From: Bacteroidales bacterium
Lineage (GTDB): Bacteria > Bacteroidota > Bacteroidia > Bacteroidales > UBA10428
DNA length: 64,000 nucleotides
Assembly (NCBI GenBank): GCA_035913795.1
Contig: JAMIIA010000061.1
Location: 231-64,230 of the forward strand
Direction: 5' to 3'
The notes under the pieces are model-generated. The model worked only from the letters and a program-made list of their open reading frames with translations. It was not told the DNA's origin and ran no database searches. A program made the position numbers and the translations under genes. How positions within the stretch are numbered: position 1 is the stretch's first letter; every line of letters starts with the position of its first letter. Shown one piece after another: positions 8,047 to 54,639 of this stretch.

Positions 8047-8102
8047 CAGAGTCGTTTACTAATTAAATTTTTTACATTCGCACTTTAAAATTAAAACAGA
8101 CC

Positions 8103-12310: not shown

Positions 12311-12916
12311 ATGAAAAAATCGAATTTAACCTTAATTATAGTAGCCTCTATAATTGGTGTATTTTTACTCTTAGGGGTTATTATTGGTCTGGCCTATATG
12401 CGAATGTACAACAAAGTTGTAAGTATGGAAGAAACCGTAAGCTCTCAATGGGCTAACGTGGAAACCGCCTATCAGCGCAGGCTTGATCTTATTCCTAATC
12501 TTGTGAACACGGTAAAGGGCTATGCCGATTTTGAGCAGGAAACACTTACCCAGGTAATTGAAGCGCGTGCCAAAGCCACCTCAGTGACTGTAGACCCTAC
12601 GAATTTGGATGCCAATACATTGGCGCAGTTTCAGCAAACACAAGGAGCACTTTCATCAGCACTTGGCCGGCTGATGGTGGTAGTTGAGAAATATCCTGAT
12701 TTAAAGGCCAATCAGAATTTTCTTGAACTTCAGGCCCAGCTCGAAGGCACCGAGAACCGAATCAGCGTGGAACGCTTAAAATACAACGATACTGTTCGAA
12801 CCTACAATACCTACGTGAAACAATTCCCCCGAAACATATTTTTTGGCGGACGCGAACAAAAGGGATATTTCGAGTCTGAGGAAGCAGCAGCAGAAGCTCC
12901 GGTCGTAGAATTTTAG
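12311..12916 (+). CDS. LemA family protein
   Basis: 201-aa ORF. N-terminal TM anchor followed by the LemA core (WANVETAYQRRLDLIPNLV, KYPDLKANQNFLELQAQLEGTENRI, YN..V..YN). Confidence 0.9.
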   Translation: MKKSNLTLIIVASIIGVFLLLGVIIGLAYMRMYNKVVSMEETVSSQWANVETAYQRRLDLIPNLVNTVKGYADFEQETLTQVIEARAKATSVTVDPTNLDANTLAQFQQTQGALSSALGRLMVVVEKYPDLKANQNFLELQAQLEGTENRISVERLKYNDTVRTYNTYVKQFPRNIFFGGREQKGYFESEEAAAEAPVVEF

Positions 12917-13051
12917 GTCGCATGCTTAATTTTATCCTACCTTCTTGATTGGGTTTTAATTAATATAATTCCCCATTCATTACGAATAATTATTTTGTTT
13001 TCGTGCCTACCATTGTTTTCACGAAAAAGAAACTAGAAAATAAAATGCCAG

Positions 13052-13492
13052 ATGAAGCCAGAACAATTCTTTGCTCAGGAAGAAAAGGATCGCATACTCG
13101 GTGCAATACGCGAATCTGAAACTCAAACATCGGGAGAAATAAGGGTGCATATCGAAAGCAATTGCCACGGCGATGTGCTGGATAGGGCAGCTTTTCTTTT
13201 CGAAAAACTGAAGATGCATCGTACAGACCTCAGAAATGGAGTGTTGTTTTATCTTTCTGTAAACGACCGTAAATTTGCCATTCTGGGCGATGCCGGCATC
13301 AATCAGGTAACTCCCGAAAACTTTTGGAATGAGATAAAAGAAGTGGTGCTGGCTGAATTCATTCAGAACCGTTATGCTGAAGGTCTTTGCAAGGGTATAC
13401 AAATGGCTGGGCAAGCTCTTCGTGAGAAATTCCCTTGTCGGTGTGATGATGTCAACGAATTGTCGAACGATTTATCGTTTGGAAAAAACTAA
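13052..13492 (+). CDS. TPM domain-containing protein (no signal peptide)
   Basis: 146-aa ORF. TPM/DUF477-like pattern (I..AI...E..TSGEIRVHI, LFYLSVNDRKFAILGD.GI). No signal peptide or TM helix seen. Confidence 0.7.
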   Translation: MKPEQFFAQEEKDRILGAIRESETQTSGEIRVHIESNCHGDVLDRAAFLFEKLKMHRTDLRNGVLFYLSVNDRKFAILGDAGINQVTPENFWNEIKEVVLAEFIQNRYAEGLCKGIQMAGQALREKFPCRCDDVNELSNDLSFGKN

Positions 13493-13495
13493 AAG

Positions 13496-14278
13496 ATGAA
13501 ACGAACTATTACCTTATTATTCTTTGTTGCTGGATTCCTGCTCCAATTGCTGGCTGTACCCCAAAAACCCGTACCGGCAAGGTTGGTGAACGATTTTACC
13601 AGCACCTTAAGTCCAGAGCAGCAGCAAGCCATGGAAAGCAAACTGGTCGACTTTGGAAACCGTACTACCACTCAGATTGTGGTGGTAATTACTAACTCAT
13701 TCGAAGGCAACGATAAATCAATGTATGCCTATAGCATTGGCGAACAATGGGGTGTTGGCAATGCTCAATTCGACAATGGCATTGTGGTGCTGCTCAAGCC
13801 CAAAACAGGGGCAGAATCCGGCGAGGTATTCATTGCTACTGGTTATGGCTTAGAGGCTGTAGTTCCCGATGCCATAGCCAAGCGCATTGTGGAACTGGAA
13901 ATGATACCCTCGTTCAGACAAGGTAGTTATTACGAAGGAATTGATAAGGCTCTGAATGTATTGATGGAATTAAGCCTCAAAGAATATACAGCCCAGGAAT
14001 ACCAACAAAAAAGCAACAAGAAAGAGTCCATTGGCGGTTTTGTCTTCCTGATTGTAGTGGCATTGTTTTTTCTTTTATCAATTTTCTCAAAAGCAGGAAG
14101 AGTGCGAAAATCTTCTCTGGGTGGAGGCAATCTCCCATTCTGGCTCTTACTTTCGATGATGGCTTCTGGAGGCCGCAGTGGTGGAGGTAGTTTTGGTAAC
14201 TTTTCCTCCGGTGGTGGATCCTTTGGAGGCTTTGGCGGAGGCAGTTTTGGTGGTGGTGGCGCAGGAGGTAGCTGGTAA
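13496..14278 (+). CDS. TPM domain-containing protein, YgcG-like (exported, membrane-anchored, Gly-rich tail)
   Basis: 260-aa ORF with signal peptide. TPM core (LVNDFTSTLSPEQ..TTTQIVVVIT, NGIVVLL, IATGYGLE). C-terminal TM helix (FVFLIVVALFFLLSIF) and a GGGSFG-type glycine-rich tail. Confidence 0.8.
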   Translation: MKRTITLLFFVAGFLLQLLAVPQKPVPARLVNDFTSTLSPEQQQAMESKLVDFGNRTTTQIVVVITNSFEGNDKSMYAYSIGEQWGVGNAQFDNGIVVLLKPKTGAESGEVFIATGYGLEAVVPDAIAKRIVELEMIPSFRQGSYYEGIDKALNVLMELSLKEYTAQEYQQKSNKKESIGGFVFLIVVALFFLLSIFSKAGRVRKSSLGGGNLPFWLLLSMMASGGRSGGGSFGNFSSGGGSFGGFGGGSFGGGGAGGSW

Positions 14279-25151: not shown

Positions 25152-26948
25152 ATGGTTATCGAAAGCAATACTGACATACGGTTTACCTTCGACATACCAC
25201 GGTATTGTGCACAACATTACGGTGAGAGCCCCATTTTTTATTTAAAGACAGGTAAAAAGTGGCAAGCAATTAGCTGCAAAGATTTTGAAGCTACAGTCAA
25301 TATGCTTGCTCTTGGACTCCTTTCAATGGGAATTGAGAAGCAAGAGAATGTAGCCACTATTTTTAGTTACAATTGTCCTCAGTGGAATTTTCTCGACATG
25401 GCGCTCTCTCGTATTGGAGCAGTGCACATACCGGTGTATCCGAACAACAGCGACAGCGACTACTTGTATATTCTCAAACAGGCTGGAGTAAGGTACGTAT
25501 TTGCATCGGACCAGGTTATTTATAATAAAATGGCCCGACTTCAAAAAGAGATAAAAAACCTTGAAAAGGTAATAACCATTGAGCCGCTTCCCTTTACCGA
25601 TAACCTCGACGAGATTATTCAATGGGGTTTGAGCTCCAGCAGAAATACCAGGGCTGTGCTTGCTGAAAGGATGAGCAGCATCTCTCCAGAGGACGTGGTA
25701 AGCATTATTTATACTTCAGGTAGCACCGGAATGCCCAAAGGGGTGATGCTCACACATTCGAATATTGTCAGCAGCATGTTTGCAGCAGCGGCTATTCAGC
25801 CACTAGGGAAAGGACACAAAGTGATTAGTTTTTTGCCCTTGTGCCATATTTATGAGCGCACCGCCAATTATCAGTTTCAGATTAAAGGTGCTCAACTTTA
25901 TTATGTTGAAACCTTAAAGTCATTGACCAGTAATTTGCGTGAAATAAAACCCCATGGCATTACTGTGGTGCCGCGTGTGCTGGAGAAGGTAATTAAAATG
26001 GCCCTGGTAAATGCCCGCCAGAGTAACCTACTCGTGCGCATGCTGGTTCGTTGGGCTATTCGTTTTGGTTTTAGGTACAGGCCCTTCCGCACCCGAATCA
26101 GGCTTGGAGAAAGAGCCAGACATAAACTAGCAGACCTGCTACTATTTGGAAAAGTGCGAAGTAGTTTTGGGGGACGAATTCAATATATAGGCTGCGGGGG
26201 TGCCCCAATGAATCCAAAGGTGGAACGATTCTTTTGGGCAGCTCATATTCCTGTTTTTCAGGGATATGGACTCACTGAATGCGCCCCCCTTGTGGCGCTT
26301 AATTTTCCGGGAAAAGAAAATACGTGCATCGGAACAGTTGGCAAGGTGGTGGAAAGTGTTGAAGTTAAGCTTGCCCCTGACGGAGAAATACTTTGCAAGG
26401 GACCAAATGTCATGAAGGGTTATTACAAGCAACCTGATTTAACAGAACAATCCTTGGTTGATGGGTGGTTATACACCGGCGATATCGGAACATTTGTGCA
26501 GGGTGAATTTCTGAAAATTACAGGCCGCAAAAAGCAGATGTTTAAAACCTCTTATGGGAAATATGTTGTGCCCCAGGCGATTGAAAATCGTTTTATGGGT
26601 TCAGAGCTAATCGATTACCTGATTGTGGTAGGAGAGGGCCACCATTGTGCCGCTGCAGTAATATCGCCCAACTTTACCTATATCAGAAAAATTTTCAATA
26701 AAACAGAGAAGCTTTCGAATGCAAGACTGATTGAACAAGCCTTGGTTAAAGATGCTATTGAGAAACAAATAGAAGAAGTAAACAAGGAATTAGGTAAAGG
26801 CGAGCGGATTCAAAAATACCTGATTGTACCCGACGAATGGTCAGTTGAAACAGGCGAACTTTCACCAACGCTTAAAATAAAACGCAACATCATTCAAAAG
26901 AAGTATGCCAGAAAAATACAGGAACTATATAGTAAAGAATCGGTTTGA
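25152..26948 (+). CDS. Long-chain fatty acid--CoA ligase (ANL superfamily)
   Basis: 598-aa ORF. AMP-binding motifs YTSGSTGMPKGV, QGYGLTE, YTGDIG, GRKKQMFK. Size and C-terminal region are typical of bacterial LACS/FadD-like enzymes. Confidence 0.85.
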   Translation: MVIESNTDIRFTFDIPRYCAQHYGESPIFYLKTGKKWQAISCKDFEATVNMLALGLLSMGIEKQENVATIFSYNCPQWNFLDMALSRIGAVHIPVYPNNSDSDYLYILKQAGVRYVFASDQVIYNKMARLQKEIKNLEKVITIEPLPFTDNLDEIIQWGLSSSRNTRAVLAERMSSISPEDVVSIIYTSGSTGMPKGVMLTHSNIVSSMFAAAAIQPLGKGHKVISFLPLCHIYERTANYQFQIKGAQLYYVETLKSLTSNLREIKPHGITVVPRVLEKVIKMALVNARQSNLLVRMLVRWAIRFGFRYRPFRTRIRLGERARHKLADLLLFGKVRSSFGGRIQYIGCGGAPMNPKVERFFWAAHIPVFQGYGLTECAPLVALNFPGKENTCIGTVGKVVESVEVKLAPDGEILCKGPNVMKGYYKQPDLTEQSLVDGWLYTGDIGTFVQGEFLKITGRKKQMFKTSYGKYVVPQAIENRFMGSELIDYLIVVGEGHHCAAAVISPNFTYIRKIFNKTEKLSNARLIEQALVKDAIEKQIEEVNKELGKGERIQKYLIVPDEWSVETGELSPTLKIKRNIIQKKYARKIQELYSKESV

Positions 26949-26991
26949 TGCCTATTAAGGATCAATTTCACGAAAAATAAATATTGATATT

Positions 26992-28782
26992 ATGAATGCT
27001 ATCCGATTATTCGATTTGCTCGACCAATATGCAGGGGATTATTCCTATAAGGACGATGCCTTTGTAGCGAAAGAAAACGGTGAATGGGTAAAATACAGTT
27101 CAGCCGATTATGTGAAATATGCCTATAAGCTTAGTTATGGCTTATTGGCTTTAGGCATTAAGCCAGGAGAAAGCATAGCCACGGTGTCGAATAACCGCCC
27201 CGAATGGAACTTTCTGGACATGGCTATGCTCATGGCAGGCATTATTCATGTTCCCATATACCCCACCATTAGTCAGGACGATTTTGAATACATACTCAAC
27301 CATTGCCAACCTAGCCTGTTTTTCATTTCCGACCAGCAATTGTTTAAAAAGCTTCAACCTCTTGCTAACCAGGTGCAAACCATTCAGGATATCTATTCTT
27401 TCAATTTAATAGAGGGGGTTAAAAACTGGAAGGAAATTTTTCAGACTGGCACTGAACGGGAATCTGAATTTAAGCAACAGTTAGAAACGATTAAGAAATC
27501 CATAAAACCCGATGACCTGGCTACGATAATCTATACATCAGGTACAACCGGAAACCCTAAGGGGGTTATGTTAAGTCACAGAAATATTCTCTCAAATCTT
27601 AGTGGAATCGAACAGGTTTTCCCATTTAATCATGGCCAGCGCACCCTTAGCTTTTTGCCTATAAGCCATATTTTTGAGCGCACGATTAATTACCATTTTC
27701 AGAATTGCGGGTTGTCAGTATATTATGCCGAGAGCCTTGCAACCATTGCCAATAACTTGAAAGAGGTGAAGCCTCATGCTTTTATTGCTGTTCCCCGAGT
27801 GCTGGAAAGGGTTTACGACCGGATTATAGGAAAGGGGAAAGATTTGAAAGGTATTAAACGACAAATATTCTTTTGGGCTGTGAACCTCGGTTTACGTTTC
27901 GAGTTTGATCGAAAAAACAGCTGGTTTTATTATTTTAAATTGAAAATTGCCGACAGGTTAATTTTTAGTAAATGGCGCGAAGCCGTTGGTGGTAATTGCG
28001 AATTAATTGTGGTAGGGGGTGCCGCTATGCAACCCCGTCTGATTCGTGTATTCAATGCCGCTGGAATTCCTCTGGTGGAGGGCTATGGAATGACCGAAAC
28101 CTCGCCTGTTATTGCTGCAAATAATTTCCTTGCAGGCAAAGTAAACCCAGGCACAGTGGGACCGATTCTTCCGGGTGTGGAGGTGAAACTTCTTGACGAT
28201 GGCGAAATTATGACCCGGAGTGAATCTGTGATGCTTGGCTACTACAAAGATGAGGAACACACCCGCCAGGTGATAGAGCCAGATGGGTGGTTGCATACCG
28301 GCGACATTGGAACCTGGGTCGATACTATTTACCTCAAAATTACCGACCGTAAGAAAGAATTATTCAAGCTATCCAGTGGTAAATACATCTCTCCGCAAGC
28401 AATTGAAAACCGCTTCAAGGAATCGTTTTTTATTGAGCAGGTATTTGTTTTTGGCGAAAACCAAAAATTTGCCAGCGCACTCATTTCTCCGAATTTTCAG
28501 TTTCTGCACGACTGGAGTGCCCGTCATGGCGTGAAATTTCGCGATAACATGGAGTTAATCAATAATTCCGAAGTAGTAAAACGGTTTCAGCGCGAAGTGA
28601 CCCAAATAAACAAATCGCTTGGACAAACAGAGCAGATTAAGCGGTTTAGACTTGTGCACGAAGAATGGGCAACTGCTACTGGCGAACTCTCCCCTACACT
28701 CAAATTGCGACGAAGGTTTCTGGTAGAAAAGTATAAAACAATAATAGAAGAAATTTTTTCGGTCGATAACACTGGTAAATAA
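26992..28782 (+). CDS. Long-chain fatty acid--CoA ligase, tandem paralogue
   Basis: 596-aa ORF. YTSGTTGNPKGV, EGYGMTE, HTGDIG, DRKKELFK. Colinear with the upstream paralogue, roughly half of residues identical by eye. Confidence 0.85.
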   Translation: MNAIRLFDLLDQYAGDYSYKDDAFVAKENGEWVKYSSADYVKYAYKLSYGLLALGIKPGESIATVSNNRPEWNFLDMAMLMAGIIHVPIYPTISQDDFEYILNHCQPSLFFISDQQLFKKLQPLANQVQTIQDIYSFNLIEGVKNWKEIFQTGTERESEFKQQLETIKKSIKPDDLATIIYTSGTTGNPKGVMLSHRNILSNLSGIEQVFPFNHGQRTLSFLPISHIFERTINYHFQNCGLSVYYAESLATIANNLKEVKPHAFIAVPRVLERVYDRIIGKGKDLKGIKRQIFFWAVNLGLRFEFDRKNSWFYYFKLKIADRLIFSKWREAVGGNCELIVVGGAAMQPRLIRVFNAAGIPLVEGYGMTETSPVIAANNFLAGKVNPGTVGPILPGVEVKLLDDGEIMTRSESVMLGYYKDEEHTRQVIEPDGWLHTGDIGTWVDTIYLKITDRKKELFKLSSGKYISPQAIENRFKESFFIEQVFVFGENQKFASALISPNFQFLHDWSARHGVKFRDNMELINNSEVVKRFQREVTQINKSLGQTEQIKRFRLVHEEWATATGELSPTLKLRRRFLVEKYKTIIEEIFSVDNTGK

Positions 28783-28945
28783 ACTAACCTTGCCTTAGAC
28801 ATAATAAAATACCCTCTTTTTAGCTGTAGCGAAAGGTCTTTTTTGTTATTAACTTATTTCGGTTGCCAGATGAAAAGTGGTTAATTTTGGCTCCTGATAG
28901 TTGAATGCCCAGTTTAAACAACATCTGAACCAAATCACCTGCATT

Positions 28946-30853
28946 ATGCAAAGCAAGAGAGCTGTTGGCTTTATCTTGAATTTTGCTTTGCTGTATACAC
29001 ACAGCATTTTTAGCCAGTCGATAGACTTTAAGGTTACTACTCTGCCCTTTTGTTCAGGTATAAACGACGAGTTTGCCGCTGTACTTTATGGCGATACCCT
29101 GGTTTATTGCTCCAATTCTCTTAGTAATTCCAGTATCAAAACCGACGAAGGGAAATTGTTTAATATTCTGGCAGTTTCACCGCGCGATTCAGGTTCTTGG
29201 AAAAGTCCGGCGTTATTTTCCAAAGAGATTACGAGTTTGCTTAACGAGGGGCCGGTAAGCTTTATGCCCGATGGCCAAATGCTCTATTTTTCGCGAAACA
29301 TTCAGATAGAGGGAAATTTTAAGACTATCAACAAGCCCTCAAATACATTGGGAATCTTTTCGGCCAGATTAATTGATGGTGTCTGGAGCGAAATCACCCC
29401 TTTCCCATTCAATAGCAAAGAGTACTCACTCGGAACACCTTCTCTTTCGCCCGATGGAACACGCTTGTATTTTGCCTGCGATAAGCCCGGAGGACTCGGT
29501 GGCACCGATATTTATTATTCAGATTTTCAACACGGACAATGGCAGGAACCAATACACGCAGGCAACCAGATTAATACCACTGGTAACGAGTCCTATCCGT
29601 TTGCAAACGATAAAGGTTTTTTGTTTTTTACCAGCGATGGGATCCCTGGAAACGGCGGCAAGGATATTTTTTATACCAAAGAAACATTCAATGGTTGGCT
29701 GACACCAGTCAATCTGGGAGCAGAAATCAATTCTTCTTTTGATGATTATGCCCTGGTAACAGATCAAAATTTCGAGAAAGGATATTTTTCGAGCAACCGT
29801 AAACGTTCGGCCGACATCTATTCTTTTATTTCAGTCATTCCGCAATTTGGCTATTGCGACACTGTCCGATTTGTTCCGCAGTGCTTTAGCTTTTTCGACG
29901 AACGGTTTACTGACTCATTACACCTCGAGTATTCCTGGAGTTTTGGAATGGGCATTAAAAAATCAGGGTACCGTGTTTCTCATTGTTTCGATAATCCCGG
30001 CAATTATTCGCTCATGCTTACCATCACACACAGGCTCGCCGATAGCATATATAAGACTTATACCTGCTATTCCTTTGCAGTGCCTGCTTCCGAAGAGTTT
30101 TCTATAATCTCACCCGAAAGCACCCTTATGGGTTATGCCACAGAACTTCAAGCTTTGAAAGCGAAAAGGTCGCAAGATAGTTTATCTACTTATTACTGGA
30201 ATTCCGGCAATGGGTATATAAAAGGCGACACAGTTTTTACTGGTAGTTTCAGTTCGGTTGGCACAAAAATGCTTGCCTTGGGCATTGAAGGGCAAAAAGA
30301 TGAATGGGGAAGAATAGCCCGACGATGTATCGTTAAGCCCTTAGAAGTAGAACCTGACTTTTTACAATACGCACAATCTCTGATCGACAAGACTCCCTCA
30401 AAAAATACCATGCCTCTATCTGAACCGAAACAGGGCATTAGTCTCAACTTTCGGATCCTGTCCGAAAGTCTGCCGCTTTATGAAACAACCCTGTTGGAAG
30501 AAAAACTAGAGGGGTATAAATTCATAGAGCCGATTGATTTAATAGAAAGTATAAGCGATAGCGCGCAGCAGATTATTTTGGAACTGGCAGACATTTTTGG
30601 GGCCTATTCTTCCGATAAGTTGTTTATTATTGTGAACAGCAGAAGTAGGACCAATGCAAAACAACAGCAGGACATAGCCGCAACGTTTATTAAAAACCTC
30701 AGTCGGGCTCTTGAGAACAAAGGTTATAATTCGCAAAGACTGGAAATAATATATACTGATCCGAAACGCATTAAGGCGAATGAGAAAGACGGGAAGCAAG
30801 TAGCTGAAGGAGCAGATTTAGAATTTTTTCTTTTACCGGAAAAAATAAAATAG
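28946..30853 (+). CDS. Secreted PD40 (TolB-like) repeat / PKD-like domain protein with weak OmpA-like C-terminus
   Basis: ORF open from 28901 (TTG). The ATG at 28946 gives signal peptide MQSKRAVGFILNFALLYTHSIFSQ. PD40 blades (LSPDGTRLYFACDKPGGLGGTDIYYS and others). PKD-like segment EYSWSFGMG..HCFDNPGNYSLMLTI. The assignment of the C-terminal part is weak. Confidence 0.6.
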   Translation: MQSKRAVGFILNFALLYTHSIFSQSIDFKVTTLPFCSGINDEFAAVLYGDTLVYCSNSLSNSSIKTDEGKLFNILAVSPRDSGSWKSPALFSKEITSLLNEGPVSFMPDGQMLYFSRNIQIEGNFKTINKPSNTLGIFSARLIDGVWSEITPFPFNSKEYSLGTPSLSPDGTRLYFACDKPGGLGGTDIYYSDFQHGQWQEPIHAGNQINTTGNESYPFANDKGFLFFTSDGIPGNGGKDIFYTKETFNGWLTPVNLGAEINSSFDDYALVTDQNFEKGYFSSNRKRSADIYSFISVIPQFGYCDTVRFVPQCFSFFDERFTDSLHLEYSWSFGMGIKKSGYRVSHCFDNPGNYSLMLTITHRLADSIYKTYTCYSFAVPASEEFSIISPESTLMGYATELQALKAKRSQDSLSTYYWNSGNGYIKGDTVFTGSFSSVGTKMLALGIEGQKDEWGRIARRCIVKPLEVEPDFLQYAQSLIDKTPSKNTMPLSEPKQGISLNFRILSESLPLYETTLLEEKLEGYKFIEPIDLIESISDSAQQIILELADIFGAYSSDKLFIIVNSRSRTNAKQQQDIAATFIKNLSRALENKGYNSQRLEIIYTDPKRIKANEKDGKQVAEGADLEFFLLPEKIK

Positions 30854-30867
30854 AAAAGAGTTGTAAA

Positions 30868-31866
30868 ATGATGTTTAACAGAATAAATAGAGTACTTATT
30901 TCCTTTTGCCTGATTTGTGGTTTTCTATTTGCAGGCCTATTGGAGACCTTTGCACAACCGGCACCTGCCCTGGATGAGAATATTCCCTTTTTGGTAACTT
31001 TTGGCGGAAATTCATCAACATCATGGGGCGATGATGATTTCTGCCAGGTGTTTTTTTGCCTCATCCCCGAAAAGGAGACCCGTCCGGTGTATATCAGGGT
31101 GTTTGATCCCGATACTGGCAACGAGCACGATGAAGCAAAAGGACCCTTTGATACAGAGGTAAGATTCTCGGTGTATGGAGGGAAAGGATGCTGGTCGAAT
31201 GATGACGCGAAAGCCATAGACCCCATCGGCAATTATAAATCAGGACGAATGTTGGCGAGTAAAACCTTCGGAAACGAACCTGCTTATAACAACACCTGGT
31301 ATACCTTTGGCCCCTTTAACCCGATGGATGGTGAGTATGTGCCCCAGTTCAAAGGACGTGTGTTGAAAATTATTGCCGAGGGTGTTTCTGGCGACGATGG
31401 TAATTTGTACAACTATTTCCTTAGCACCGATGCGCACCGCAACTTACAGGTAGAGGGAGGCAATCTTTTTACCTACGAATACACTTTCAGGCTGCATAAC
31501 AACAACAAGCAGATATCGCAGATATATCCCTTTATCGATGATAAAACCATTTCTGTTGAAATATCAAACTTCGATTGGGACGAGGATGGTCTTATCAGAC
31601 TGGTGTCGGTAGCCAAGAATGGCGTAATAAGTCAAGTTTCGGGCGAGAACAATTGGAGTAAAAGTGAGTTTCCGATAGTAACACAAGAAAGAAACACTAC
31701 ACTCGAATTACAGTTTATTAAAAAGCAGACTTCGCTAGTGCGCAACAACAATGTAGCCGTTGTGGTAAAAAACCAATATGGCGAGACTTTGCCTTTTTAT
31801 GTCATACCAATTGGGGGTATTCCTGTTTACTCCCCTAAGATACGCATGCAAAATATTGCCCAATAA
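30868..31866 (+). CDS. Secreted hypothetical protein (no family recognised)
   Basis: 332-aa ORF starting 14 nt after the previous gene. Clear signal peptide (LISFCLICGFLFAGLLETFAQ). Acidic, Gly/Asp-rich segments (WGDDDF, FDPDTGNEHDE, SGDDGNLYNYF). Confidence 0.6.
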   Translation: MMFNRINRVLISFCLICGFLFAGLLETFAQPAPALDENIPFLVTFGGNSSTSWGDDDFCQVFFCLIPEKETRPVYIRVFDPDTGNEHDEAKGPFDTEVRFSVYGGKGCWSNDDAKAIDPIGNYKSGRMLASKTFGNEPAYNNTWYTFGPFNPMDGEYVPQFKGRVLKIIAEGVSGDDGNLYNYFLSTDAHRNLQVEGGNLFTYEYTFRLHNNNKQISQIYPFIDDKTISVEISNFDWDEDGLIRLVSVAKNGVISQVSGENNWSKSEFPIVTQERNTTLELQFIKKQTSLVRNNNVAVVVKNQYGETLPFYVIPIGGIPVYSPKIRMQNIAQ

Positions 31867-31896
31867 AAACTAATTTCACCCAACAATCGAAGATTT

Positions 31897-34800
31897 ATGT
31901 TGCGACCTCTATCCTGCATTTTTTTTATGGCATTTCTTCATGCAGGGCTGGTCCTTGGTCAACATTATCAGTACAAACATTTCGATCAGCAGACAGGCCT
32001 GGGCCAGGCATATGTGTACGCACTTACCCAGGACCAGCAGGGGTATTTGTGGATCGGTACGGGTAATGGACTATTTAAATTCAATGGATTTTATTTCGAG
32101 CAATTTACCACAGACGATTCTCTTGCCGATAATTACGTAACCACGCTTCTGCATCAGGACGAAACTCTGTGGTTGGGGCATCAGACAGGTCAAATTACCT
32201 CTATCAGTGGCAACCATATTCGAAAACATAATCTCCCTGGGGCAGAAGAAGCCTTGGTGGTGGGTTTTCAGGCTGCACCGAATGGATCGGTCTGGATTGC
32301 TACGTATGAAAATGGATTATTTTTTCTCGATAAAAAGCAGCAAATCAGATCACTGACAACAGTGGGTGAGGTGCCCAATATCAATTGCTTTGCTATCGAT
32401 TCGGCGGGCTGGGTAATGTTGGGTACCGACCGGGGTTTGTTTCTTGCCCTTCTTCAGACAGACAATAAACTTCTTATTGGCCAATCGGTAAAAGGTATTG
32501 AAGAAGGGAGGGTTGTCGCCATTCAAACCCTTTCTCCAGGAGATTATATGGTTGCTACAGAGGATAAAGGTGTTTTTCGTTTGCTGATTGATGAAGGCAA
32601 ATTAAAGCTACATCGGATTGTTTCCGTCAAATTATTGAACGAATACCTGGTTTCTTATGCCCAGGTTGATAAGCAGAAGAACCTTTGGATTTCTGCCATG
32701 GGAGGAGGGTTGGCACAAGTTCCTGGAGCTTTTTCAAACCACGAATATCAACCTGAATTAAACTGGATTACCGGAAACAAAACGGAGTACATTAAAACAA
32801 TTTTTATCGACCGTGACGAGAGTCTCTGGCTGGGATTATATGGGCAGGGTCTTACGCAATTTCGCATGAACCCTTTTGATCAGAAAAAAATTGAATTTCA
32901 AGGGAACGTACTGAATATAAGAGCAATGGTAACCGAGTTCGATTTTCAATGGCTGGCATCTGACTCACTCTTGTTTCAATACAACAGGAATAATTTTTTT
33001 GTGAAGAAGCAAGCCTCATTCTCTTCACGAATTTCAGCTCTTTGCATGGTGTCGGCAACAGATCTATACATTGGCACCGAGGCCAGTGGCTTATATACGC
33101 TAAACAAGAAAACCAATCAAATTAGGAAAGTAGAACTTGGTCCAGGTCTGTTGGAAAATTCCATCACCGATCTGGCTGTTTTGGACAATACCCTCTATAT
33201 TGGTACACGAAAGGGGCTTGCAAGTAAGCAGATTTCTACTGAGGAGGTTGCCTGGTATACCATTCAGAATGGTAACCTGCCCCACAATGTTGTCAATAGC
33301 ATTTATACCGACAAAAATGGGATATGGGGAGCCACTCAGAGTAATATCCTTGCATATTTTCAATCAGGAGCCCTCCGCCGAAAAATTGAGATACCTTCGG
33401 ACAATGGACGTATTCTTTTAAGTGGAATAGCCATCGATTCTTTGGGGAATATTTGGGTAGGTAGTAATGGACAGGGCATTTTCAGGCTCATGTCCGATTC
33501 GGTATTGAATATTCGTCAAAAGGACGGACTTTTTTCAGATTACTGCTATTCCTTACTTACAGCGGATGACGGCAATATCTGGGTAACCCACCGTGGAGGC
33601 TTAAGTCGTGTCAATCCTTCTAGCTTATTTGTGAGCAAAGTGCAATCGGCGGCTGGACTTTCTGGCCAGGAAGAAATTTTTCCCGGAGCCATACTGAAAG
33701 AAACGAATGGTGAAATATGGATAGGGACCTCCTCCGGATTGATCCATTATAACCCGCTATTGGAACAGCCATCCTCTCAAGCACCCCTATTAAGTTTAGT
33801 TTCGATTAGGGCAAATGGAATTGAGCTGCCTCAGAAGGAGGAGATGAAAATACACTATGGAAATTATAAACTCCGATTCGAGTTTATTGGCATTAGTCTC
33901 AAAGAACCAACAGGAGTAAAGTACCAGTATCGGTTACTGGGTTACGACAGCGAATGGTCGGAAGTAAATTCCGAGGGTTTGGCAGTATTTTCGAATGTGT
34001 CTGCCGGAGAGTATACTTTTCAATTGCTTGCCTCTACTAGCGAAGGCATAGTTACTCCTAAACCTCTTGAAATACAACTTACCATCAGAAAGGCACTCTG
34101 GACCCTTTGGTGGTTCTATCTGCTTGGTTTTTCAATCCTTGCTTTTGGTGCCTTTGTTTATATCGAAAGACGCGAGTTTTATCTAAAGCAGCGTAATAAA
34201 TTGCTTGAAGCCAAAGTGCAGGAACGTACCCTCGAAATTGAACGGCAGGGAGAAATTATCATGAAAAAAAATCTGGATATCACCGATAGCATAAAGTATG
34301 CTCGAACTATCCAATCGGCCATTTTTCCTCCTGAAGATATTCTTGTGGAAGCACTGCATGAGTATTTTCTGATCAATAAACCCAAAGACATTGTCAGCGG
34401 CGATTTTTGCTGGTATACACGAAACAAGGGCAAATATGTAATAGCCCTCACAGACTGCACTGGACATGGTGTACCTGGTTCAATTATGAGCATGCTTGGA
34501 ATTACCCTGCTTAACGAAGTGGTCAATAACCTCGGAAATACCAAGTCGGCTGAAATACTGGAATTGCTTCGCGAAAAGGTGATCTCGGCACTTAACCAGC
34601 ACCGGAGAGACAATCCTTCTTACGATGGCATGAATGTGGGGTTAATTGTAATTGATAAATTGAATCAAACCTTGCAATATTCCGGTGCCTTTCATAACCT
34701 TTATTGTTTTAGGTCTGGTGCCCTTCAGACCTTTAAGGCAGAGCGCACGCCAGTTGGTTTTACGCCTCTTGAAAAGCCACCTTTTTCTGCTAGTACCATT

Positions 34801-35031
34801 CAATACCTAAAAGGGGATATGTTTTACATGTTTTCCGATGGATTTCAGGATCAGTTTGGAGGAACGGAAGATAAAAAATTCTCTAACCGCCGATTATTAA
34901 GGAACTTGAGCGATTTACAGGATAAACCCATTCAATACCAGAAACAATTTCTGGAGCAGACACTTAAAAACTGGATGCAAGACCGGGAACAAACCGACGA
35001 TATTATTCTGCTTGGATTTCGGATGCTATAG
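31897..35031 (+). CDS. Periplasmic double beta-propeller/Y_Y_Y sensor fused to a PP2C (SpoIIE-type) protein phosphatase
   Basis: 1044-aa ORF with signal peptide. About 12 W-[IVL]-G-T-x-x-G-L propeller repeats (YLWIGTGNGLFKF .. EIWIGTSSGLIHY). Y_Y_Y-like KYQYRLLGYDSEWSEV. One TM helix (nt ~34093-34170). PP2C motifs SGDFCWY, DCTGHGVPGS, FSDGFQDQ, DDIILLGF. Confidence 0.8.
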   Translation: MLRPLSCIFFMAFLHAGLVLGQHYQYKHFDQQTGLGQAYVYALTQDQQGYLWIGTGNGLFKFNGFYFEQFTTDDSLADNYVTTLLHQDETLWLGHQTGQITSISGNHIRKHNLPGAEEALVVGFQAAPNGSVWIATYENGLFFLDKKQQIRSLTTVGEVPNINCFAIDSAGWVMLGTDRGLFLALLQTDNKLLIGQSVKGIEEGRVVAIQTLSPGDYMVATEDKGVFRLLIDEGKLKLHRIVSVKLLNEYLVSYAQVDKQKNLWISAMGGGLAQVPGAFSNHEYQPELNWITGNKTEYIKTIFIDRDESLWLGLYGQGLTQFRMNPFDQKKIEFQGNVLNIRAMVTEFDFQWLASDSLLFQYNRNNFFVKKQASFSSRISALCMVSATDLYIGTEASGLYTLNKKTNQIRKVELGPGLLENSITDLAVLDNTLYIGTRKGLASKQISTEEVAWYTIQNGNLPHNVVNSIYTDKNGIWGATQSNILAYFQSGALRRKIEIPSDNGRILLSGIAIDSLGNIWVGSNGQGIFRLMSDSVLNIRQKDGLFSDYCYSLLTADDGNIWVTHRGGLSRVNPSSLFVSKVQSAAGLSGQEEIFPGAILKETNGEIWIGTSSGLIHYNPLLEQPSSQAPLLSLVSIRANGIELPQKEEMKIHYGNYKLRFEFIGISLKEPTGVKYQYRLLGYDSEWSEVNSEGLAVFSNVSAGEYTFQLLASTSEGIVTPKPLEIQLTIRKALWTLWWFYLLGFSILAFGAFVYIERREFYLKQRNKLLEAKVQERTLEIERQGEIIMKKNLDITDSIKYARTIQSAIFPPEDILVEALHEYFLINKPKDIVSGDFCWYTRNKGKYVIALTDCTGHGVPGSIMSMLGITLLNEVVNNLGNTKSAEILELLREKVISALNQHRRDNPSYDGMNVGLIVIDKLNQTLQYSGAFHNLYCFRSGALQTFKAERTPVGFTPLEKPPFSASTIQYLKGDMFYMFSDGFQDQFGGTEDKKFSNRRLLRNLSDLQDKPIQYQKQFLEQTLKNWMQDREQTDDIILLGFRML

Positions 35032-35090
35032 TTCAGCAGCTATTGCTTTTCTGCGAGCTCAATGCTAATTTGTGTTTATTAGTTTTAGTA

Positions 35091-35116
35091 AAACCAGTAT
35101 CTTAGGCTGGTTTTTA
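35091..35116 (+). terminator. Candidate terminator after the sensor-phosphatase gene
   Basis: 7-bp stem AAACCAG/CTGGTTT (35091-35097 pairs with 35107-35113), 9-nt loop, running into TTTTT. It starts 60 nt after the stop codon. Confidence 0.45.
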
Positions 35117-35344
35117 GGCTTATACTTCATTTTCAGAGCAAATACCAAGCAGAAACAGAAGCATTCTGCTACAAAGGTAATCAGGTGATCTTGAAAAAGT
35201 TTTATTGGCTTAAATGGGTAAAGGGGGAGTTTTTCAGCAAATAGTAAAAAGCATACTATTCGATGAATAGAGCATTTTACTTATCTTTTCCAACGACAGT
35301 TTTTAATAAGAACGGATCAATATCAGGATCCAACACGTGTATAG

Positions 35345-36451
35345 ATGAGAATCGCAATTTATTTTCTTTTTTTGGTTTCTTTTTTAATGGCTTGCATGCC
35401 CAAGTCAGATCCTCAATCCAAACCCATTTCCGAATTAAAATATGCGCGGGGATTCTCCATTTCTCATGAAGGAGATGTTACCGTGGTGGAAGTCTATAAT
35501 CCATGGGACAACTACAAGCTCCTATCGCGTTATAAATTAATCAGAAGCGAAGATGCATTAAGCCAAACAAATGATCTTATTCAAGTGCCTGTTGGTCGTA
35601 TAGCCAGTCTTTCTTCGACCTACACCGGCATGCTTTCTATTTTGGATGCACGTGATAAGCTGATAGCCTGTGCCAATGCAAATTGGCTGGTCGATTCAGC
35701 TCTTTATGCACGTTATATAAATGGTGAATTGTTCGATCTTGGAAACGAATTAAATACCGATGCCGAAAATGTTCTGTCTAAAAACCCGGGTGTAGTATTA
35801 AAATACATTTATCAGTCACCCGATCCGATCGACCCAATTCTTTTAAAAGCAGGAGTACCTGTAGTATATATCATTGAATTTATGGAAGACCATCCGCTGG
35901 GCAGGGCCGAGTGGTTAAAGTTGGTTGGTGCATTGCTCGGAAAAGAGGCACTTGCTGATTCGATTTTTCAAGTAATAGAATTGAACTATTTAACTTATAA
36001 GAACCTGGCAGCCAAAGACACCAATATGCCTTTTGTGTTGGATGGCACCATTTATAAAGGAAACTGGTTTGCCGCAGGTGGGAAGAGTTTCGTGGCACAA
36101 CTCATCAGCGATGCCAATGCCGGGTATGCCTGGAGCAATGATTCATCCAGAGGTAGCCTCAATCTGAGTTTCGAGGCAGTGATCCACCGGCAACAAGATG
36201 CAGAATTCTGGATCAATGCCAGTGCAGCTAGTCTGCAAGAAATTGAAACGATAGAACCACGTTGTAAAATCCTCCAATCATTTCAGCAAGGGCAGGTGTA
36301 TCATTACAATAAACGTGTCAATCCGAATGGAGGGCTTGATTATTACGAAACAGGTGTTGTGCGTCCGGATTTGCTTCTGAGGGATTTGTTGATAATTTTG
36401 CACCCCGGTACCATCGACGAAGAAACAGTATATTACAAAAAACTTGAATAG
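35345..36451 (+). CDS. ABC transporter substrate-binding lipoprotein, BtuF/FecB (iron-chelate/corrinoid) type
   Basis: 368-aa ORF. Lipobox LMAC. Class III periplasmic-binding-protein pattern (YARGFSI, PVGRIASLSSTYTGMLSILDA, PDLLL). Confidence 0.8.
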   Translation: MRIAIYFLFLVSFLMACMPKSDPQSKPISELKYARGFSISHEGDVTVVEVYNPWDNYKLLSRYKLIRSEDALSQTNDLIQVPVGRIASLSSTYTGMLSILDARDKLIACANANWLVDSALYARYINGELFDLGNELNTDAENVLSKNPGVVLKYIYQSPDPIDPILLKAGVPVVYIIEFMEDHPLGRAEWLKLVGALLGKEALADSIFQVIELNYLTYKNLAAKDTNMPFVLDGTIYKGNWFAAGGKSFVAQLISDANAGYAWSNDSSRGSLNLSFEAVIHRQQDAEFWINASAASLQEIETIEPRCKILQSFQQGQVYHYNKRVNPNGGLDYYETGVVRPDLLLRDLLIILHPGTIDEETVYYKKLE

Positions 36452-47400: not shown

Positions 47401-48753
47401 TCAGAATGTCAGCGTAAATACTGTTTCTTTTTCTGGTATCGAATGGGCTGAAATCGAACCATTGTGCAAGCGCATAATCTGCCTCGACAAAGAAAGTCCA
47501 ATCCCCGAACCGCTTGGTTTTGTTGTGAAAAAGGGAATAAATACTTTATCAAGTACATCGGGTAATATTCCAGGCCCATTGTCTGTAACCTGCAGGCTTA
47601 CCTTTCCCCTTTTGTTGTAAAACCCAACGAGGCTGAGTTTGGCTTTTGCTCTACCTTGTAAAGCTTGGGCAGCATTTTTTATCAGATTAATAAGCACCTG
47701 TTCAATTAATTGTCCGTCAGCTGTAAGGGAGATATTATCCGGGTCGAGTTTAATTTCAAGTCCGATATTTTTGCTTTTAAGTTCTTCGTTCATCAAATTA
47801 CTTACATTGGCAAATACTTCGGAAAGTCGGCAAACACCAAAATTAGGTTGGGGTATTTTAGTAAGATTACGGTAGGTATTGACAAAGTGAAGCAAGCCAT
47901 TGCTTCGTTTGTTAATTGTTTGCAAAGCGTGGTTAATTTCATCGAGACTTTCCTGATCAAATAAGTAGTTACCCAATTCATTCTTTTTAAGATGCTGGGT
48001 TAAACCAGTGAGGGTGGTGGCAATACTTGAAATAGGAGCAATGGAATTCATAATTTCATGTGTCAGTACCCTGATTAGCTTTTGCCAGGCATCAGTTTCC
48101 TGCTCTTCGAGTACGTTTTGAATATCTTTGATCGTTACCAGGGTAATAAGCTTATCTTTTACTTTAAAGGTCGAGGAGGAGATGGTTAATTGCAGAAAGC
48201 CTTCTATATCCTGAACCTTTACTAACTCATTTTGGCCAGGTTGAATGCTAAAAAGTTTTTTAACAAGTTCTTTGCTAAAGACTTCCAGTGCCTGAATATT
48301 GCGCAATCCACTTACCTGAAAGAGTTTTTTAGCAGCCTTGTTTATTAATTCAATGGTACCATCAACCCGATAGGCAATTACACTTACATCGATGTTTTGC
48401 AATATATTTTGCAAATAATAGAAGTGTTCTTCCTTTTCGGTCCTCACTCGCTGAAAGTCATTAATAACTTCGTTAAAAGCATGGTTTAATTCGCTAAACG
48501 ATGCTCCCATGTTTTGAAAATTGAACGATTGCGAAAATTCGGAATACCTTATAGATTCGAGAAGATTAGCCAATTCGCGGTTAGTTTTGTCGGCATAACG
48601 GATAAGTGAAACCACTAAAAAGATAATGATACCACTTACAATAAAAGGAGTAAAAAAGAAATTGATGGAAAAGGAATAATAGAAAAGAAAGACTGCCATT
48701 ACAATTAGCAGAATTCTAATAATAATATTAAAACGGTAGTTTTTAAAGCTCAT
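47401..48753 (-). CDS. Sensor histidine kinase (NtrB/NtrY-like)
   Basis: 450-aa ORF. Two N-terminal TM helices, PAS-like middle region, H-box LTHEIMNSIAPI, N-box LIKNAAQAL, G-boxes DNGPGI and TTKPSGSGIGLSLS. 11-nt overlap with the regulator gene. Confidence 0.85.
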   Translation of the reverse strand: MSFKNYRFNIIIRILLIVMAVFLFYYSFSINFFFTPFIVSGIIIFLVVSLIRYADKTNRELANLLESIRYSEFSQSFNFQNMGASFSELNHAFNEVINDFQRVRTEKEEHFYYLQNILQNIDVSVIAYRVDGTIELINKAAKKLFQVSGLRNIQALEVFSKELVKKLFSIQPGQNELVKVQDIEGFLQLTISSSTFKVKDKLITLVTIKDIQNVLEEQETDAWQKLIRVLTHEIMNSIAPISSIATTLTGLTQHLKKNELGNYLFDQESLDEINHALQTINKRSNGLLHFVNTYRNLTKIPQPNFGVCRLSEVFANVSNLMNEELKSKNIGLEIKLDPDNISLTADGQLIEQVLINLIKNAAQALQGRAKAKLSLVGFYNKRGKVSLQVTDNGPGILPDVLDKVFIPFFTTKPSGSGIGLSLSRQIMRLHNGSISAHSIPEKETVFTLTF

Positions 48754-50119
48754 GTTTTTCCATTCTGCGATAAAGCGAGGTTCTGGTCAATCCAAGTTCT
48801 TTGGCGGCTTTTGTAATGTTACCCTCGTTTTGCTTGAGTACTTTGGTAATAATTTTGCGTTCTATTTCATCGAGGTTATAAGAATCTATTTCCATTTCTG
48901 CTTGTTTCTTCCGGGTTTGATTTAAAAAGAAATCGTCTGCATCGAGCGATCCGGATTCGCACATAATAACACCTCTTTCAATGGCATGTTGGAGCTCTCT
49001 TACATTCCCCGGCCAGGAATAAGCAGCTAGCTTTTTTAAAGCCTGGGTCGTGACTTTTCCTGAGTTTTTCTTATACTTTTTGGCGTAAATTTTAACAAAA
49101 TGGTCAGTTAAAACCGGAATATCGCCAGTGCGTTCGCGCAGGGGTGGGAGGTGAATCTCCACGGTGTTAATTCTATAGAGTAAATCCTGACGAAAAGTGC
49201 CATAATCCAGCATCTCGTAAACATTGTTATTGGTAGCGCAAATTAAACGAACATCAATGTTTGTGGGGTGATTGTCTCCTACTCTTGTAACCTCTTTTCT
49301 TTCAATTACAGTAAGCAGTTTAGCCTGCAAAGGCAAAGAAAGGTTGCCAATTTCGTCGAGGAATAGTGTGCCGCCAGACGCTATTTCAAAACGGCCGGGC
49401 TTGTCTTTCTTTGCATCGGTAAAGGAACCTTTCACATGACCAAATAATTCACTTTCGAATAAGGTTTCTGTAATCGAACCAAGGTCTACATTCACAAATA
49501 CATTGTTATTGCGGTTGCTATTGCGGTAGATCGCTCTGGCTACCAATTCTTTTCCAGTACCGTTTTCGCCCAATATCAGCACGTTTGCATCAGTCTTTGC
49601 TACTTTTTGTATGGTGCTGAATACTTCTTCCATTTCTGGCGATTTGCCAATAAAATCCTGAAAAGGCTGATCGGTGATCGCGGTTATTGCTTCCTGTTTG
49701 TTGCGCAGAAGGGTAATTTCTTTTCTCGATCTGCGAATTTCGAGGGCTGCAGACAAGGTTGCCAGCAACTTCTCGTTTTGCCAGGGTTTAAGTACAAAAT
49801 CTGTAGCCCCTGCCTTTATTGATTGAACAGCCTTTTCCGAATCGCCATAGGCAGTTATAAATACGACTACAGCCTTCGGGTCGAACTCCAGAATTTTGGC
49901 TAACCAATCGAATCCCTCTTTTCCACTGCTGGCATCTCGTGTAAAATTCATATCGAGTAGAATTACATCGTATTCTTCCACTTTAAGCAAGTCCAACACC
50001 CTCATTGGCGACGATAGGGTTGTAATTTTCTCTACCTGAGGCTTAAGCAATAATTTTAATGCAAATAAAATATCTTCGTTATCGTCTATGGCCAAAAATT
50101 TTCCTTTAAGTTGTTCCAT
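48743..50119 (-). CDS. Sigma-54-dependent response regulator (NtrC family bEBP)
   Basis: ORF open to 50248; MEQLKGKFLAIDDNEDIL at 50119 is the likely start. Receiver domain (DVILLDMNF, LKPW). AAA+ domain with GENGTGKE and ESELFGHVKGSFTDA (the GAFTGA loop reads GSFTDA). C-terminal Fis-type HTH (ITKAAKELGLTRTSLYRRM). Confidence 0.9.
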   Translation of the reverse strand: MEQLKGKFLAIDDNEDILFALKLLLKPQVEKITTLSSPMRVLDLLKVEEYDVILLDMNFTRDASSGKEGFDWLAKILEFDPKAVVVFITAYGDSEKAVQSIKAGATDFVLKPWQNEKLLATLSAALEIRRSRKEITLLRNKQEAITAITDQPFQDFIGKSPEMEEVFSTIQKVAKTDANVLILGENGTGKELVARAIYRNSNRNNNVFVNVDLGSITETLFESELFGHVKGSFTDAKKDKPGRFEIASGGTLFLDEIGNLSLPLQAKLLTVIERKEVTRVGDNHPTNIDVRLICATNNNVYEMLDYGTFRQDLLYRINTVEIHLPPLRERTGDIPVLTDHFVKIYAKKYKKNSGKVTTQALKKLAAYSWPGNVRELQHAIERGVIMCESGSLDADDFFLNQTRKKQAEMEIDSYNLDEIERKIITKVLKQNEGNITKAAKELGLTRTSLYRRMEKHEL

Positions 50120-50250
50120 TTGCAGTGCTTGTTTAAGAGAAATGAAATGTACGAAATCGTACTTATTTTGTAGCAATTGCGAACAGAAAAATTTTATATG
50201 AGCTTTATACTGCCTATTTAAATATATGAAATACAATACAATATCCATGT

Positions 50251-53148: not shown

Positions 53149-54639
53149 ATGGGGGTTCGATTTTTACCTGTTTTATTGATTTCTATTTATCTGTTTACCG
53201 CTTCTGGTTGCGACAAGGAAGAGTTTACAGCAAATCCGGAAGACCGGATTCGAATTTCATTGGATACCCTAAGCTTCGATACCGTTTTTACTGAACAGGC
53301 CACTGTTACCCGTTTGTTCAAAATTTATAATCCGCACGATCTATCCATTCAACTTTCGCGTGTATATGTTAAAGGTGGCGCATCAGCAGGTTTTAGGCTA
53401 AATGTCGACGGGTTGCCGGGAACTGATTTGAAGAACATTATTTTGCCACCCAAAGACAGCCTTTACATTTTTGTGGTCCTTACCCTCGATCCGGTTGGTG
53501 GCAATTTGCCTTTAGTGGTTTACGATGCCATTGTGTTCGAATACAATGGTACAGAAAGTCAAATAACCTTAGAAGCTTTTGGTCAGGATGTTTTTCTTAT
53601 ACGGGGCACTTTGGCGGAATCAACCACCTGGACAGCCGCAAAACCCTATCTTATTTATCGGAATATAGTAATTGATGAAGATCAAACCCTTACCATCGAA
53701 GCAGGAGCCCGCATATATCTTCATTACAATGCAAGCATAGTAGTGTATGGGAAGCTAAAAGTTAATGGCACACTTGAGGCGCCGATTGTGTTCGAGGGCG
53801 ACCGCTTTGACCGTGGTTACGATGAGTCGGCCGGACGCTGGGGCACCATTGTATTCCAACCTGGAAGTACCGACAACCTTTTGCGCTATGCTATTATAAA
53901 AAATGCCCAGGCTGGATTACAGGTTGGTATTCCCGGTGAATTTGAGGTGCAACCCTCTGTTGTGTTGCATAATACATTGATACAAAACTCATCCTTTTCG
54001 AGCATTCTGGCTTTTGGTGCCCAGATCGAAGCGTATAATTGCATTTTTGCTGATGCCCGGTATTACAGTTTGATTTTGTTGATGGGTGGGGAGTATAACT
54101 TTTTTCACAGCACAATATCAATATATGGTGCGCTCGAAAAGAATGTAGCCGTTACAAGATATCTGCGTGGAAACCCTTCCAATGCCTTGTACCTATCCAA
54201 TTGGTACCCATATTATATTTTAAACGATTACTATCTGGTGGAAGAAAAAACAGCCAATGTTGAACTGGTATCTGCCAATTTCATAAATTCAATTGTTTAT
54301 GGCAACAACAAACTAGAGCTGGATAAGGATGATAATGGGCAAACAGCCTTTAACTTTCAGTTCGAAAATTGTATTCTTAAACAACTGGAAGATTCGGTGG
54401 AAGCATATGGCAGCGAGCATTTTAAAATGGTTATTCTAAACCAGGATCCACGGTTTGTAAACGATAGTATTTTATTAGGGCCATTGGATTTCAGACTCGA
54501 TACCCTATCACCAGCTATGGATGCCGGGTCGATGGACCAAGTGAATGCACGTTTACCCTATCTGCAATTCGATTACGATGGAAATGACCGCACCCTCGAT
54601 GGAAGGCCTGACCTGGGCGCATTTGAACGACAAGAATAA
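53149..54639 (+). CDS. Hypothetical lipoprotein, Ig-like N-domain plus probable right-handed beta-helix
   Basis: 496-aa ORF. Signal peptide with lipobox TASGC. N-terminal Ig-like segment (LSFDTVF..TRLFKIYNP..LSIQLSRVYV). Then beta-helix-like turns (LTIEAGARIYLHYNASIVVYGKLKVNGTLEAPIVFEG). The fold assignment is inference. Confidence 0.55.
   Translation: MGVRFLPVLLISIYLFTASGCDKEEFTANPEDRIRISLDTLSFDTVFTEQATVTRLFKIYNPHDLSIQLSRVYVKGGASAGFRLNVDGLPGTDLKNIILPPKDSLYIFVVLTLDPVGGNLPLVVYDAIVFEYNGTESQITLEAFGQDVFLIRGTLAESTTWTAAKPYLIYRNIVIDEDQTLTIEAGARIYLHYNASIVVYGKLKVNGTLEAPIVFEGDRFDRGYDESAGRWGTIVFQPGSTDNLLRYAIIKNAQAGLQVGIPGEFEVQPSVVLHNTLIQNSSFSSILAFGAQIEAYNCIFADARYYSLILLMGGEYNFFHSTISIYGALEKNVAVTRYLRGNPSNALYLSNWYPYYILNDYYLVEEKTANVELVSANFINSIVYGNNKLELDKDDNGQTAFNFQFENCILKQLEDSVEAYGSEHFKMVILNQDPRFVNDSILLGPLDFRLDTLSPAMDAGSMDQVNARLPYLQFDYDGNDRTLDGRPDLGAFERQE

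Follow-up and report, generated by a model that had tools for sequence, protein, structure and literature searches.

What does a periplasmic sensor joined to a phosphatase perceive, and on which protein does it act, when nothing resembling a partner is encoded nearby? The question is raised by a stretch of 64,000 nucleotides (nt) from a Bacteroidales bacterium (UBA10428; assembly GCA_035913795.1, contig JAMIIA010000061.1, positions 231 to 64,230), hereafter the window. Its forward strand carries three consecutive genes, A (28946-30853, 635 amino acids), B (30868-31866, 332 amino acids) and C (31897-35031, 1044 amino acids). A preliminary description of this DNA had placed them as three co-directional open reading frames (ORFs) 163 nt behind an acyl-CoA ligase gene (end at 28782) and 14 and 30 nt from one another, and rechecking the coordinates gave exactly these values. 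Gene order and domain composition in relatives argue that A-B-C is a widely conserved envelope signalling unit of Bacteroidales. Every component class is known, namely a PorE-like protein (A), a sensor of the hybrid two-component system (HTCS) type (C) and a SiaA/SiaC switch, and one protein family, that of B, is new.

An alignment of B was scanned against 185,579 species genomes, which returned 468 relatives, and 80 loci were kept. A further 80 loci came from an independent metagenome sample, for which the counts below refer to scorable subsets (60, 45 and 37 loci). In the window, the genes upstream of A encode housekeeping proteins (alanyl-tRNA synthetase, prolyl oligopeptidase and two acyl-CoA ligases), and C is followed by an iron-type ABC importer and menaquinone genes. 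Across the 80 genome loci these flanks were not conserved, whereas A-B-C was. [quoted passage not shown] PorP stood directly before A in 59 of the 63 loci with a visible upstream region, and the median gaps were 12 nt for PorP-A, 12 nt for A-B and 5 nt for B-C. The cultured Natronoflexus pectinivorans (L085) has the full five-gene form, and Marinifilum and Labilibaculum are also cultured carriers. The preliminary description had made its reading depend on co-location of the trio in related genomes; we found A-B-C together in more than 150 loci with differing flanks, far beyond chance.

The window departs from the five-gene form in having neither a CHU_C cargo gene nor a PorP/SprF gene adjacent to A, and tblastn found no cognate pair in it. 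A close relative (L081), whose B is 88% identical, has the same flanks and the same cargo-less arrangement. Measured against this relative, the ratio of nonsynonymous to synonymous substitution rates (dN/dS) was 0.14 for A, 0.11 for B and 0.13 for C, values that point to purifying selection on all three genes. The trio has therefore been kept without adjacent cargo and PorP genes.

We then compared how tightly the members hold together. In the 80 genome loci a sensor gene followed B with about four exceptions, of which L056, L057 (Saccharicrinis, with cargo, PorP, A and B and no sensor) and L071 are clear. In the metagenome sample, a Reg_prop/Y_Y_Y sensor gene lay directly after B in 56 of 60 loci. 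A was upstream of B in 33 of 45 and PorP in 29 of 45; neither was found upstream in 9 of 45, and five loci had A without PorP, as in the window. Where a second cargo-PorP pair lay between A and B (L006, L012, L015-17 and L049), and where A was absent (L013, L020, L055 and L076), the sensor was still directly after B. B and C also occurred alone, with no A or T9SS genes nearby, in L088 (beside pectate-lyase-like genes) and L089, and L086 has a PKD-only remnant followed by B-C and then a kinase paralogue. Judged by these gene arrangements, B and the sensor make up the near-invariant core, to which A is dispensable. The earlier idea of two accessory proteins feeding one sensor is accordingly conjectural for B and doubtful for A, as B-C occurs without A or T9SS genes.

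The output of the sensor is less constant than its periplasmic part. A histidine kinase or hybrid kinase replaced the PP2C domain behind the same sensor and juxtamembrane helix in 12 of the 80 genome loci, and PP2C was the output on the sensor after B in 36 of 37 metagenome loci, with a histidine kinase in none of the 37. Since the output domain is swapped while the sensor is retained, the perception side is the conserved feature. In the kinase-type loci we considered that a response-regulator PP2C might follow the kinase; this was wrong, the downstream genes being M16 peptidases. Nine loci (L044, L048, L086, L121, L127, L135, L145, L158 and L164) have an additional Reg_prop/Y_Y_Y sensor, this one with histidine-kinase output; its gene may lie upstream of the cargo gene, follow C or separate B from C. 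One type of periplasmic sensor thus serves a kinase as well as a phosphatase in these loci.

Gene C encodes a transmembrane sensor phosphatase with Pfam matches to Reg_prop, Y_Y_Y and SpoIIE. Its periplasmic part is a double Reg_prop propeller with Y_Y_Y (nt 31963-34101), homologous in a PDB search to the solved HTCS sensors 4A2L, 4A2M, 3V9F and 3OTT. A hydropathy scan placed the only internal transmembrane segment at residues 736-757 (nt 34102-34167), after which a signalling helix leads to the PP2C domain (nt 34426-35022). The architecture proposed earlier, a double propeller/Y_Y_Y sensor, one transmembrane helix and a SpoIIE PP2C, is therefore borne out by Pfam and the hydropathy scan. The SpoIIE/PP2C domain (PF07228) scored 70.9 bits against a gathering threshold of 25, and the metal-binding motifs SGDF, DCTGHG, SDGF and TDDI are present. 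As in the HTCS proteins of Bacteroides (e.g., BT4663 and the four structures above), the double propeller and Y_Y_Y precede one transmembrane helix. C differs from them in carrying PP2C in place of the HisKA, HATPase, receiver and AraC helix-turn-helix domains, none of which was detected by Pfam, in having a B-family gene immediately upstream and, here, in lying outside any polysaccharide utilisation locus.

The only solved PP2C that C matched is SiaA of Pseudomonas aeruginosa (PDB 6K4E). The two PP2C domains align end to end (E = 1e-38), including the preceding helix LEAKVQERT. SiaA dephosphorylates SiaC in Pseudomonas (PMC7647112, PMC8457831). The preliminary description had found no phosphatase partner in the window, and it was right: no STAS, RsbW, SiaB/SiaC or Hanks kinase was present among the 53 window ORFs scanned (most, not all, of those of at least 100 amino acids), and a SiaC profile gave no match in a six-frame translation of the window. 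Nor did ORF clustering of the relatives reveal any gene conserved downstream of C. We had considered conserved small genes downstream of C as candidates for SiaB or SiaC, wrongly, for the clusters proved to be NUDIX, GNAT, glyoxalase and SnoaL proteins. Homologous small proteins are encoded directly after C in L063 (12374-12847) and about 2.6 kb from C in L010 (14785-15186); a STAS/SpoIIAA-like fold was not confirmed for them, the best PDB match having E = 0.16.

In the relatives, by contrast to the window, inspection and a local hidden Markov model (HMM) located SiaC-family (DUF1987) genes within the module or next to it in 8 of 174 loci, and the positions that they occupy number six or more. 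In L046 and L077 the gene follows C in convergent orientation, and in L090 it is co-directional with C and lies 67 nt behind it. It stands 0-4 nt ahead of B in L092 and L093, ahead of A in L096, separates PorP from A in L110 and is upstream of the cargo gene in L116. Compared with Pseudomonas aeruginosa SiaC, the homologue in L090 gave E = 7.6e-16 and that in L046 E = 4.5e-5, and in five homologues (L046, L077, L090, L092 and L093) a Ser or Thr aligns with T68, the phospho-site of SiaC. With at most five SiaC genes per genome of about 4000 genes, a figure that was assumed and not measured, a rough estimate of chance adjacency is well under one case in 174 loci. The SiaA-like PP2C domain and the recurrent adjacency of SiaC genes, taken together with the action of SiaA on SiaC, therefore make a SiaC-family protein the likely substrate class of C and the best candidate for it. 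Although its partner is not encoded in the window, the phosphatase is in kind no orphan; it is SiaA-like, with SiaC-family genes recurring beside the module in relatives. Relative to the SiaABCD system of Pseudomonas aeruginosa (SiaA 6K4E; SiaC 6K4F and 6KKO), the PP2C with its helix, the neighbouring SiaC-family genes and the Ser/Thr at the phospho-site position are shared; the periplasmic sensor is different, and siaB, siaC and siaD are all missing from the window.

Gene B is the new element. It was first described as belonging to no recognised family, and this stands: Pfam, NCBIfam and a PDB sequence-profile search returned nothing, and Foldseek searches of the PDB with both B models gave only generic tandem beta-sandwiches with TM-scores of at most 0.26, including the SIDT ectodomain, ColG collagen-binding domains, CUB domains and tandem CBM22. 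We found 4271 homologues at E <= 1e-3, all unnamed and falling into 641 clusters at 50% identity. An AlphaFold model built from a 66-sequence alignment (pLDDT 90.4, pTM 0.86) shows a signal helix and two beta-sandwich domains, followed by a C-terminal tail (PIGGxPxYxPK) that is disordered in the model yet conserved in sequence. B is the best-conserved protein of the module, at 56-70% identity, compared with 38-53% for the A propeller and 27-37% for the C sensor. Its acidic loops (GDDD, DPDxGG, GDDGN and NFDWDxDG) may point to calcium binding.

The B domain also occurs as the N-terminal head of proteins of 1400-1700 amino acids with 6-15 PKD repeats, and in other proteins it is placed C-terminally of a BlaR1/M56 membrane domain or of IPT/TIG domains. 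In these contexts it behaves as a portable binding module outside the cytoplasm. Proteins carrying it in other architectures are P0141, P0144, P0190, P0200, P0174, P0124 and P0150. A lone distant homologue (34% identity) without A or a sensor is present in L084 (8001-8966), near genes for a YkuD L,D-transpeptidase, a GHL10 protein and a PKD protein that has a type-A CTD; the B family therefore has members outside the module. Homology of B to the N-terminal domain of the cargo was considered and ruled out, the B HMM matching B genes only.

Gene A encodes an exported protein with a PD40 beta-propeller (nt 29027-29833), a PKD domain (nt 29912-30031) and a degenerate OmpA_C-like tail (about nt 30443-30850). 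The preliminary description, which spoke of PD40 blades, a PKD-like domain and a faint OmpA-like tail, was fair on all three, as judged from Pfam and from alignment of the tail to orthologues whose OmpA domain scores. In these orthologues PD40 is accompanied by two PKD domains and by an OmpA domain that Pfam scores as significant; in the window protein the tail gave no Pfam OmpA match, HTD is replaced by NSR and NRRVEF by GADLEF, and the canonical R is also lost. Some orthologues are wholly without the OmpA-like tail. Against the NCBIfam models for PorE (NF052230) and the CHU_0125 OmpA-like family (NF053607), A scored 141.5 bits (cut-off 600) and 151.8 bits (cut-off 620), below both cut-offs. 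These models align on the propeller only (A residues 28-296), the profile match beginning at position 159. PorE has been described as a four-domain protein including an N-terminal TPR and a CRD (PMC12773672). A shares with it the WD40/PD40-type propeller, as do many A orthologues the OmpA_C domain, but it has no TPR or CarboxypepD_reg match, PKD occupies the expected CRD position and the tail is degenerate. We therefore call A PorE-like by its propeller, yet it fails several features of PorE membership.

The gene context of A in relatives gives this likeness more meaning. PorE binds PorP, and PorP binds type-B cargo; Flavobacterium johnsoniae has five operons of cargo, SprF-like and PorE-like genes, for example Fjoh_3952-3951-3950 (PMC9143113, PMC12618676). 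The relatives of A resemble these operons and the PorE-PorP-PG1035 complex of Porphyromonas gingivalis in that A follows cargo (CHU_C, type-B CTD) and PorP/SprF genes, whereas A of the window has neither gene beside it. In the published operons, neither B nor a sensor phosphatase has been reported. A, which the preliminary description took for an anonymous accessory, is thus PorE-like and in most relatives a member of a five-gene operon. The organism itself has a T9SS, since a core cluster lies at 3593-9236 of the window. It consists of porU (4582-8046, Peptidase_C25 and CTD), porV (8103-9236) and, beside them, the sole PorP/SprF-family gene of the window (3593-4525, reverse strand), divergent from porU and possibly PorQ-like.

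With somewhat more confidence than doubt, we propose that the unit is an envelope signalling module with B and C as its core, a SiaC switch as its output and A as its tie to T9SS complexes. C would reside in the inner membrane, with a large periplasmic sensor of the ligand-binding HTCS kind and a cytoplasmic SiaA-type PP2C domain. B, an exported tandem beta-sandwich, would work together with the part of C that lies in the periplasm and serve there as co-sensor or adaptor. A change of state in the periplasm would then lead C to dephosphorylate a SiaC-family, STAS-like switch protein encoded elsewhere in the genome, and the dephosphorylated protein would alter the activity of an effector. A, as a PorE-like periplasmic propeller, may link the module physically or through regulation to complexes of T9SS type-B cargo and PorP-like anchors, the cognate cargo and PorP genes of which would no longer be adjacent in this lineage. 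The nearest functional analogies for B-C, which we take to be TorT-TorS and LuxP-LuxQ, likewise pair a small exported protein with a membrane sensor encoded beside it and co-inherited with it. B differs from TorT and LuxP in being a tandem beta-sandwich instead of having the periplasmic-binding-protein fold, and its interaction with C is a predicted one.

Several observations weigh against this proposal. It is the adjacency of their genes that suggests contact between B and C; no fusion of the B domain to Reg_prop or PP2C, sought as a Rosetta-stone protein, was found among 150 representatives, in which the long forms are B heads with PKD arrays; and B has no following sensor in L057 and four metagenome loci. 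SiaC genes are adjacent in fewer than 5% of the loci and absent from the window, and no SiaB-type kinase was identified, no search aimed at SiaB having been made. Against the SiaA family model (NF038263) C scored 187 bits, far below the cut-off of 700, with only the linker and PP2C aligning. In L092 (2172-3524) and L093 (7622-8972) the SiaC gene is followed by B and then a PIF1-type helicase gene instead of the sensor, an arrangement that pairs a cytoplasmic switch protein with an exported one. The degenerate OmpA-like tail and the lack of an adjacent PorP or cargo gene make the role of A in this genome uncertain, and it is from spacing and conservation that A-B-C appears to form a single operon.

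We next weighed whether the genes might share no more than their regulation. A, and perhaps B, would then be structural parts of type-B cargo anchoring, and C would be a stand-alone ligand sensor that controls the operon. The usual context of cargo, PorP, A, B and C fits this explanation, PorE-like genes are already known in such operons, and in solved structures sensors of the HTCS type bind their ligands unaided. It accounts less well for the persistence of B-C without nearby T9SS genes (L088, L089 and 9 of 45 metagenome loci) and for purifying selection on A, B and C in the lineage of the window, where cargo and PorP are gone. Moreover, B is the best-conserved member, and its adjacency to the sensor is tighter than that to PorP or A. 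Given these points, we regard co-regulation alone as unlikely, although it deserves consideration.

A bolder version of the signalling module would make it a relay across the envelope, in which the load, contact or loss of a surface type-B adhesin is signalled by way of the PorP-like barrel to A, B and finally C. Read in sequence, the genes correspond to the layers of the envelope from the surface inwards (cargo, barrel in the outer membrane, propeller and then sandwich in the periplasm, and inner-membrane sensor), contacts among PorE, PorP and cargo have been published, and the conserved disordered tail of B could dock into a partner. Yet the B-C core occurs without cargo, PorP or A in many loci, neither a cargo nor a PorP gene is adjacent in the window, and the contacts among A, B and C are predicted ones. 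We consider the relay improbable, and take the same sceptical view of the broader idea that Bacteroidales monitor type-B adhesin/PorP-like complexes (their contact, cargo load or envelope integrity) through A and B to C and a SiaC switch. If true, the trans-envelope reading would describe a dedicated circuit for surface sensing that is coupled to type IX secretion.

B might also be an enzyme or a secreted factor, for example one that modifies glycans, with C sensing its product or substrate. Its very high conservation and its numerous invariant residues (Asp, Glu, Asn and aromatic ones) would suit a catalyst, as would weak Foldseek matches to PNGase F-like double jelly rolls and the pectate-lyase-like genes adjoining B-C in L088. 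The structural matches are nevertheless generic and mostly to non-catalytic binding modules, no catalytic family was matched by Pfam, NCBIfam or the PDB profile search, and a domain that heads PKD stalks and is appended to a BlaR1-type membrane protein is typical of binding domains, which leaves an enzymatic B very unlikely. Finally, a chance grouping of three unrelated genes for exported proteins is refuted by an order kept in more than 150 loci with unrelated flanks and gaps of 5-12 nt.

A literature search found neither the B family nor its pairing with a sensor described, and no report of a type-B cargo operon that includes a sensor phosphatase. The preliminary description had asked whether the trio belongs to an already characterised system; the cargo-PorP-A part is indeed a published type of T9SS operon, while the B-C pair is undescribed in the literature searched. 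Its suggestion of a new style of envelope or glycan sensing is possible. The module as read here gives a large, conserved and unnamed family a concrete functional context and provides T9SS type-B cargo operons and a PorE-like protein with a link to signalling. It also offers a likely substrate class (SiaC/DUF1987) for widespread sensor phosphatases of Bacteroidota whose partners are not encoded nearby. Entry points are thereby provided to how Bacteroidota regulate or sense surface-anchored T9SS proteins, and to SiaC-like switches outside Pseudomonas.

We further examined the boundaries of the unit. Although the synonymous divergence of L081 from the window genes is 0.7-0.9, the final ~105 nt of the gap before A (28840-28945) are ~93% identical between the two, compared with ~50% for the first 58 nt. 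This stretch contains a candidate promoter, the Bacteroidetes-type -7 box TAATTTTG at 28882-28889. The reading frame of A opens already at TTG 28901, and the 15 codons from there to ATG 28946 show two differences from L081. Both are nonsynonymous, a non-coding substitution pattern that rules out TTG 28901 as the start; the ~105 nt therefore look like a conserved non-coding leader, and ATG 28946 is the likely start of A. Rfam had no match within 28600-35400.

At the other end, a hairpin with a T-run at 35090-35116 had been taken to close the unit. It exists, but its fold is modest (-8 to -10 kcal/mol, z = -1.4), a terminator scan did not list it and its stem is not kept in L081, the closest relative, so that an intrinsic terminator at this site is a weak possibility. 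The signal peptides earlier attributed to all three proteins were likewise confirmed in part. Hydrophobic N-terminal segments are evident by inspection in A, B and C; a 19-residue hydropathy scan flagged those of B and C and not that of A, which is shorter.

Elsewhere in the window, directly upstream of A, a tandem pair of paralogous AMP-binding (acyl-CoA ligase-like) genes occupies 25152-28782, in an order that is kept in L081. An ORF of 496 amino acids without a Pfam family (53149-54639) lies directly upstream of an Exo_endo_phos_3 gene (54640-55653). A lone receiver-domain protein is encoded at 204-650, and the reverse strand carries a sigma-54-dependent pair (47401-50248) made up of an NtrC-type response regulator (48743-50248) and a histidine kinase (47401-48753). 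At 12311-14278, two TPM-domain genes come after a LemA gene and form with it a recurrent membrane-associated trio.

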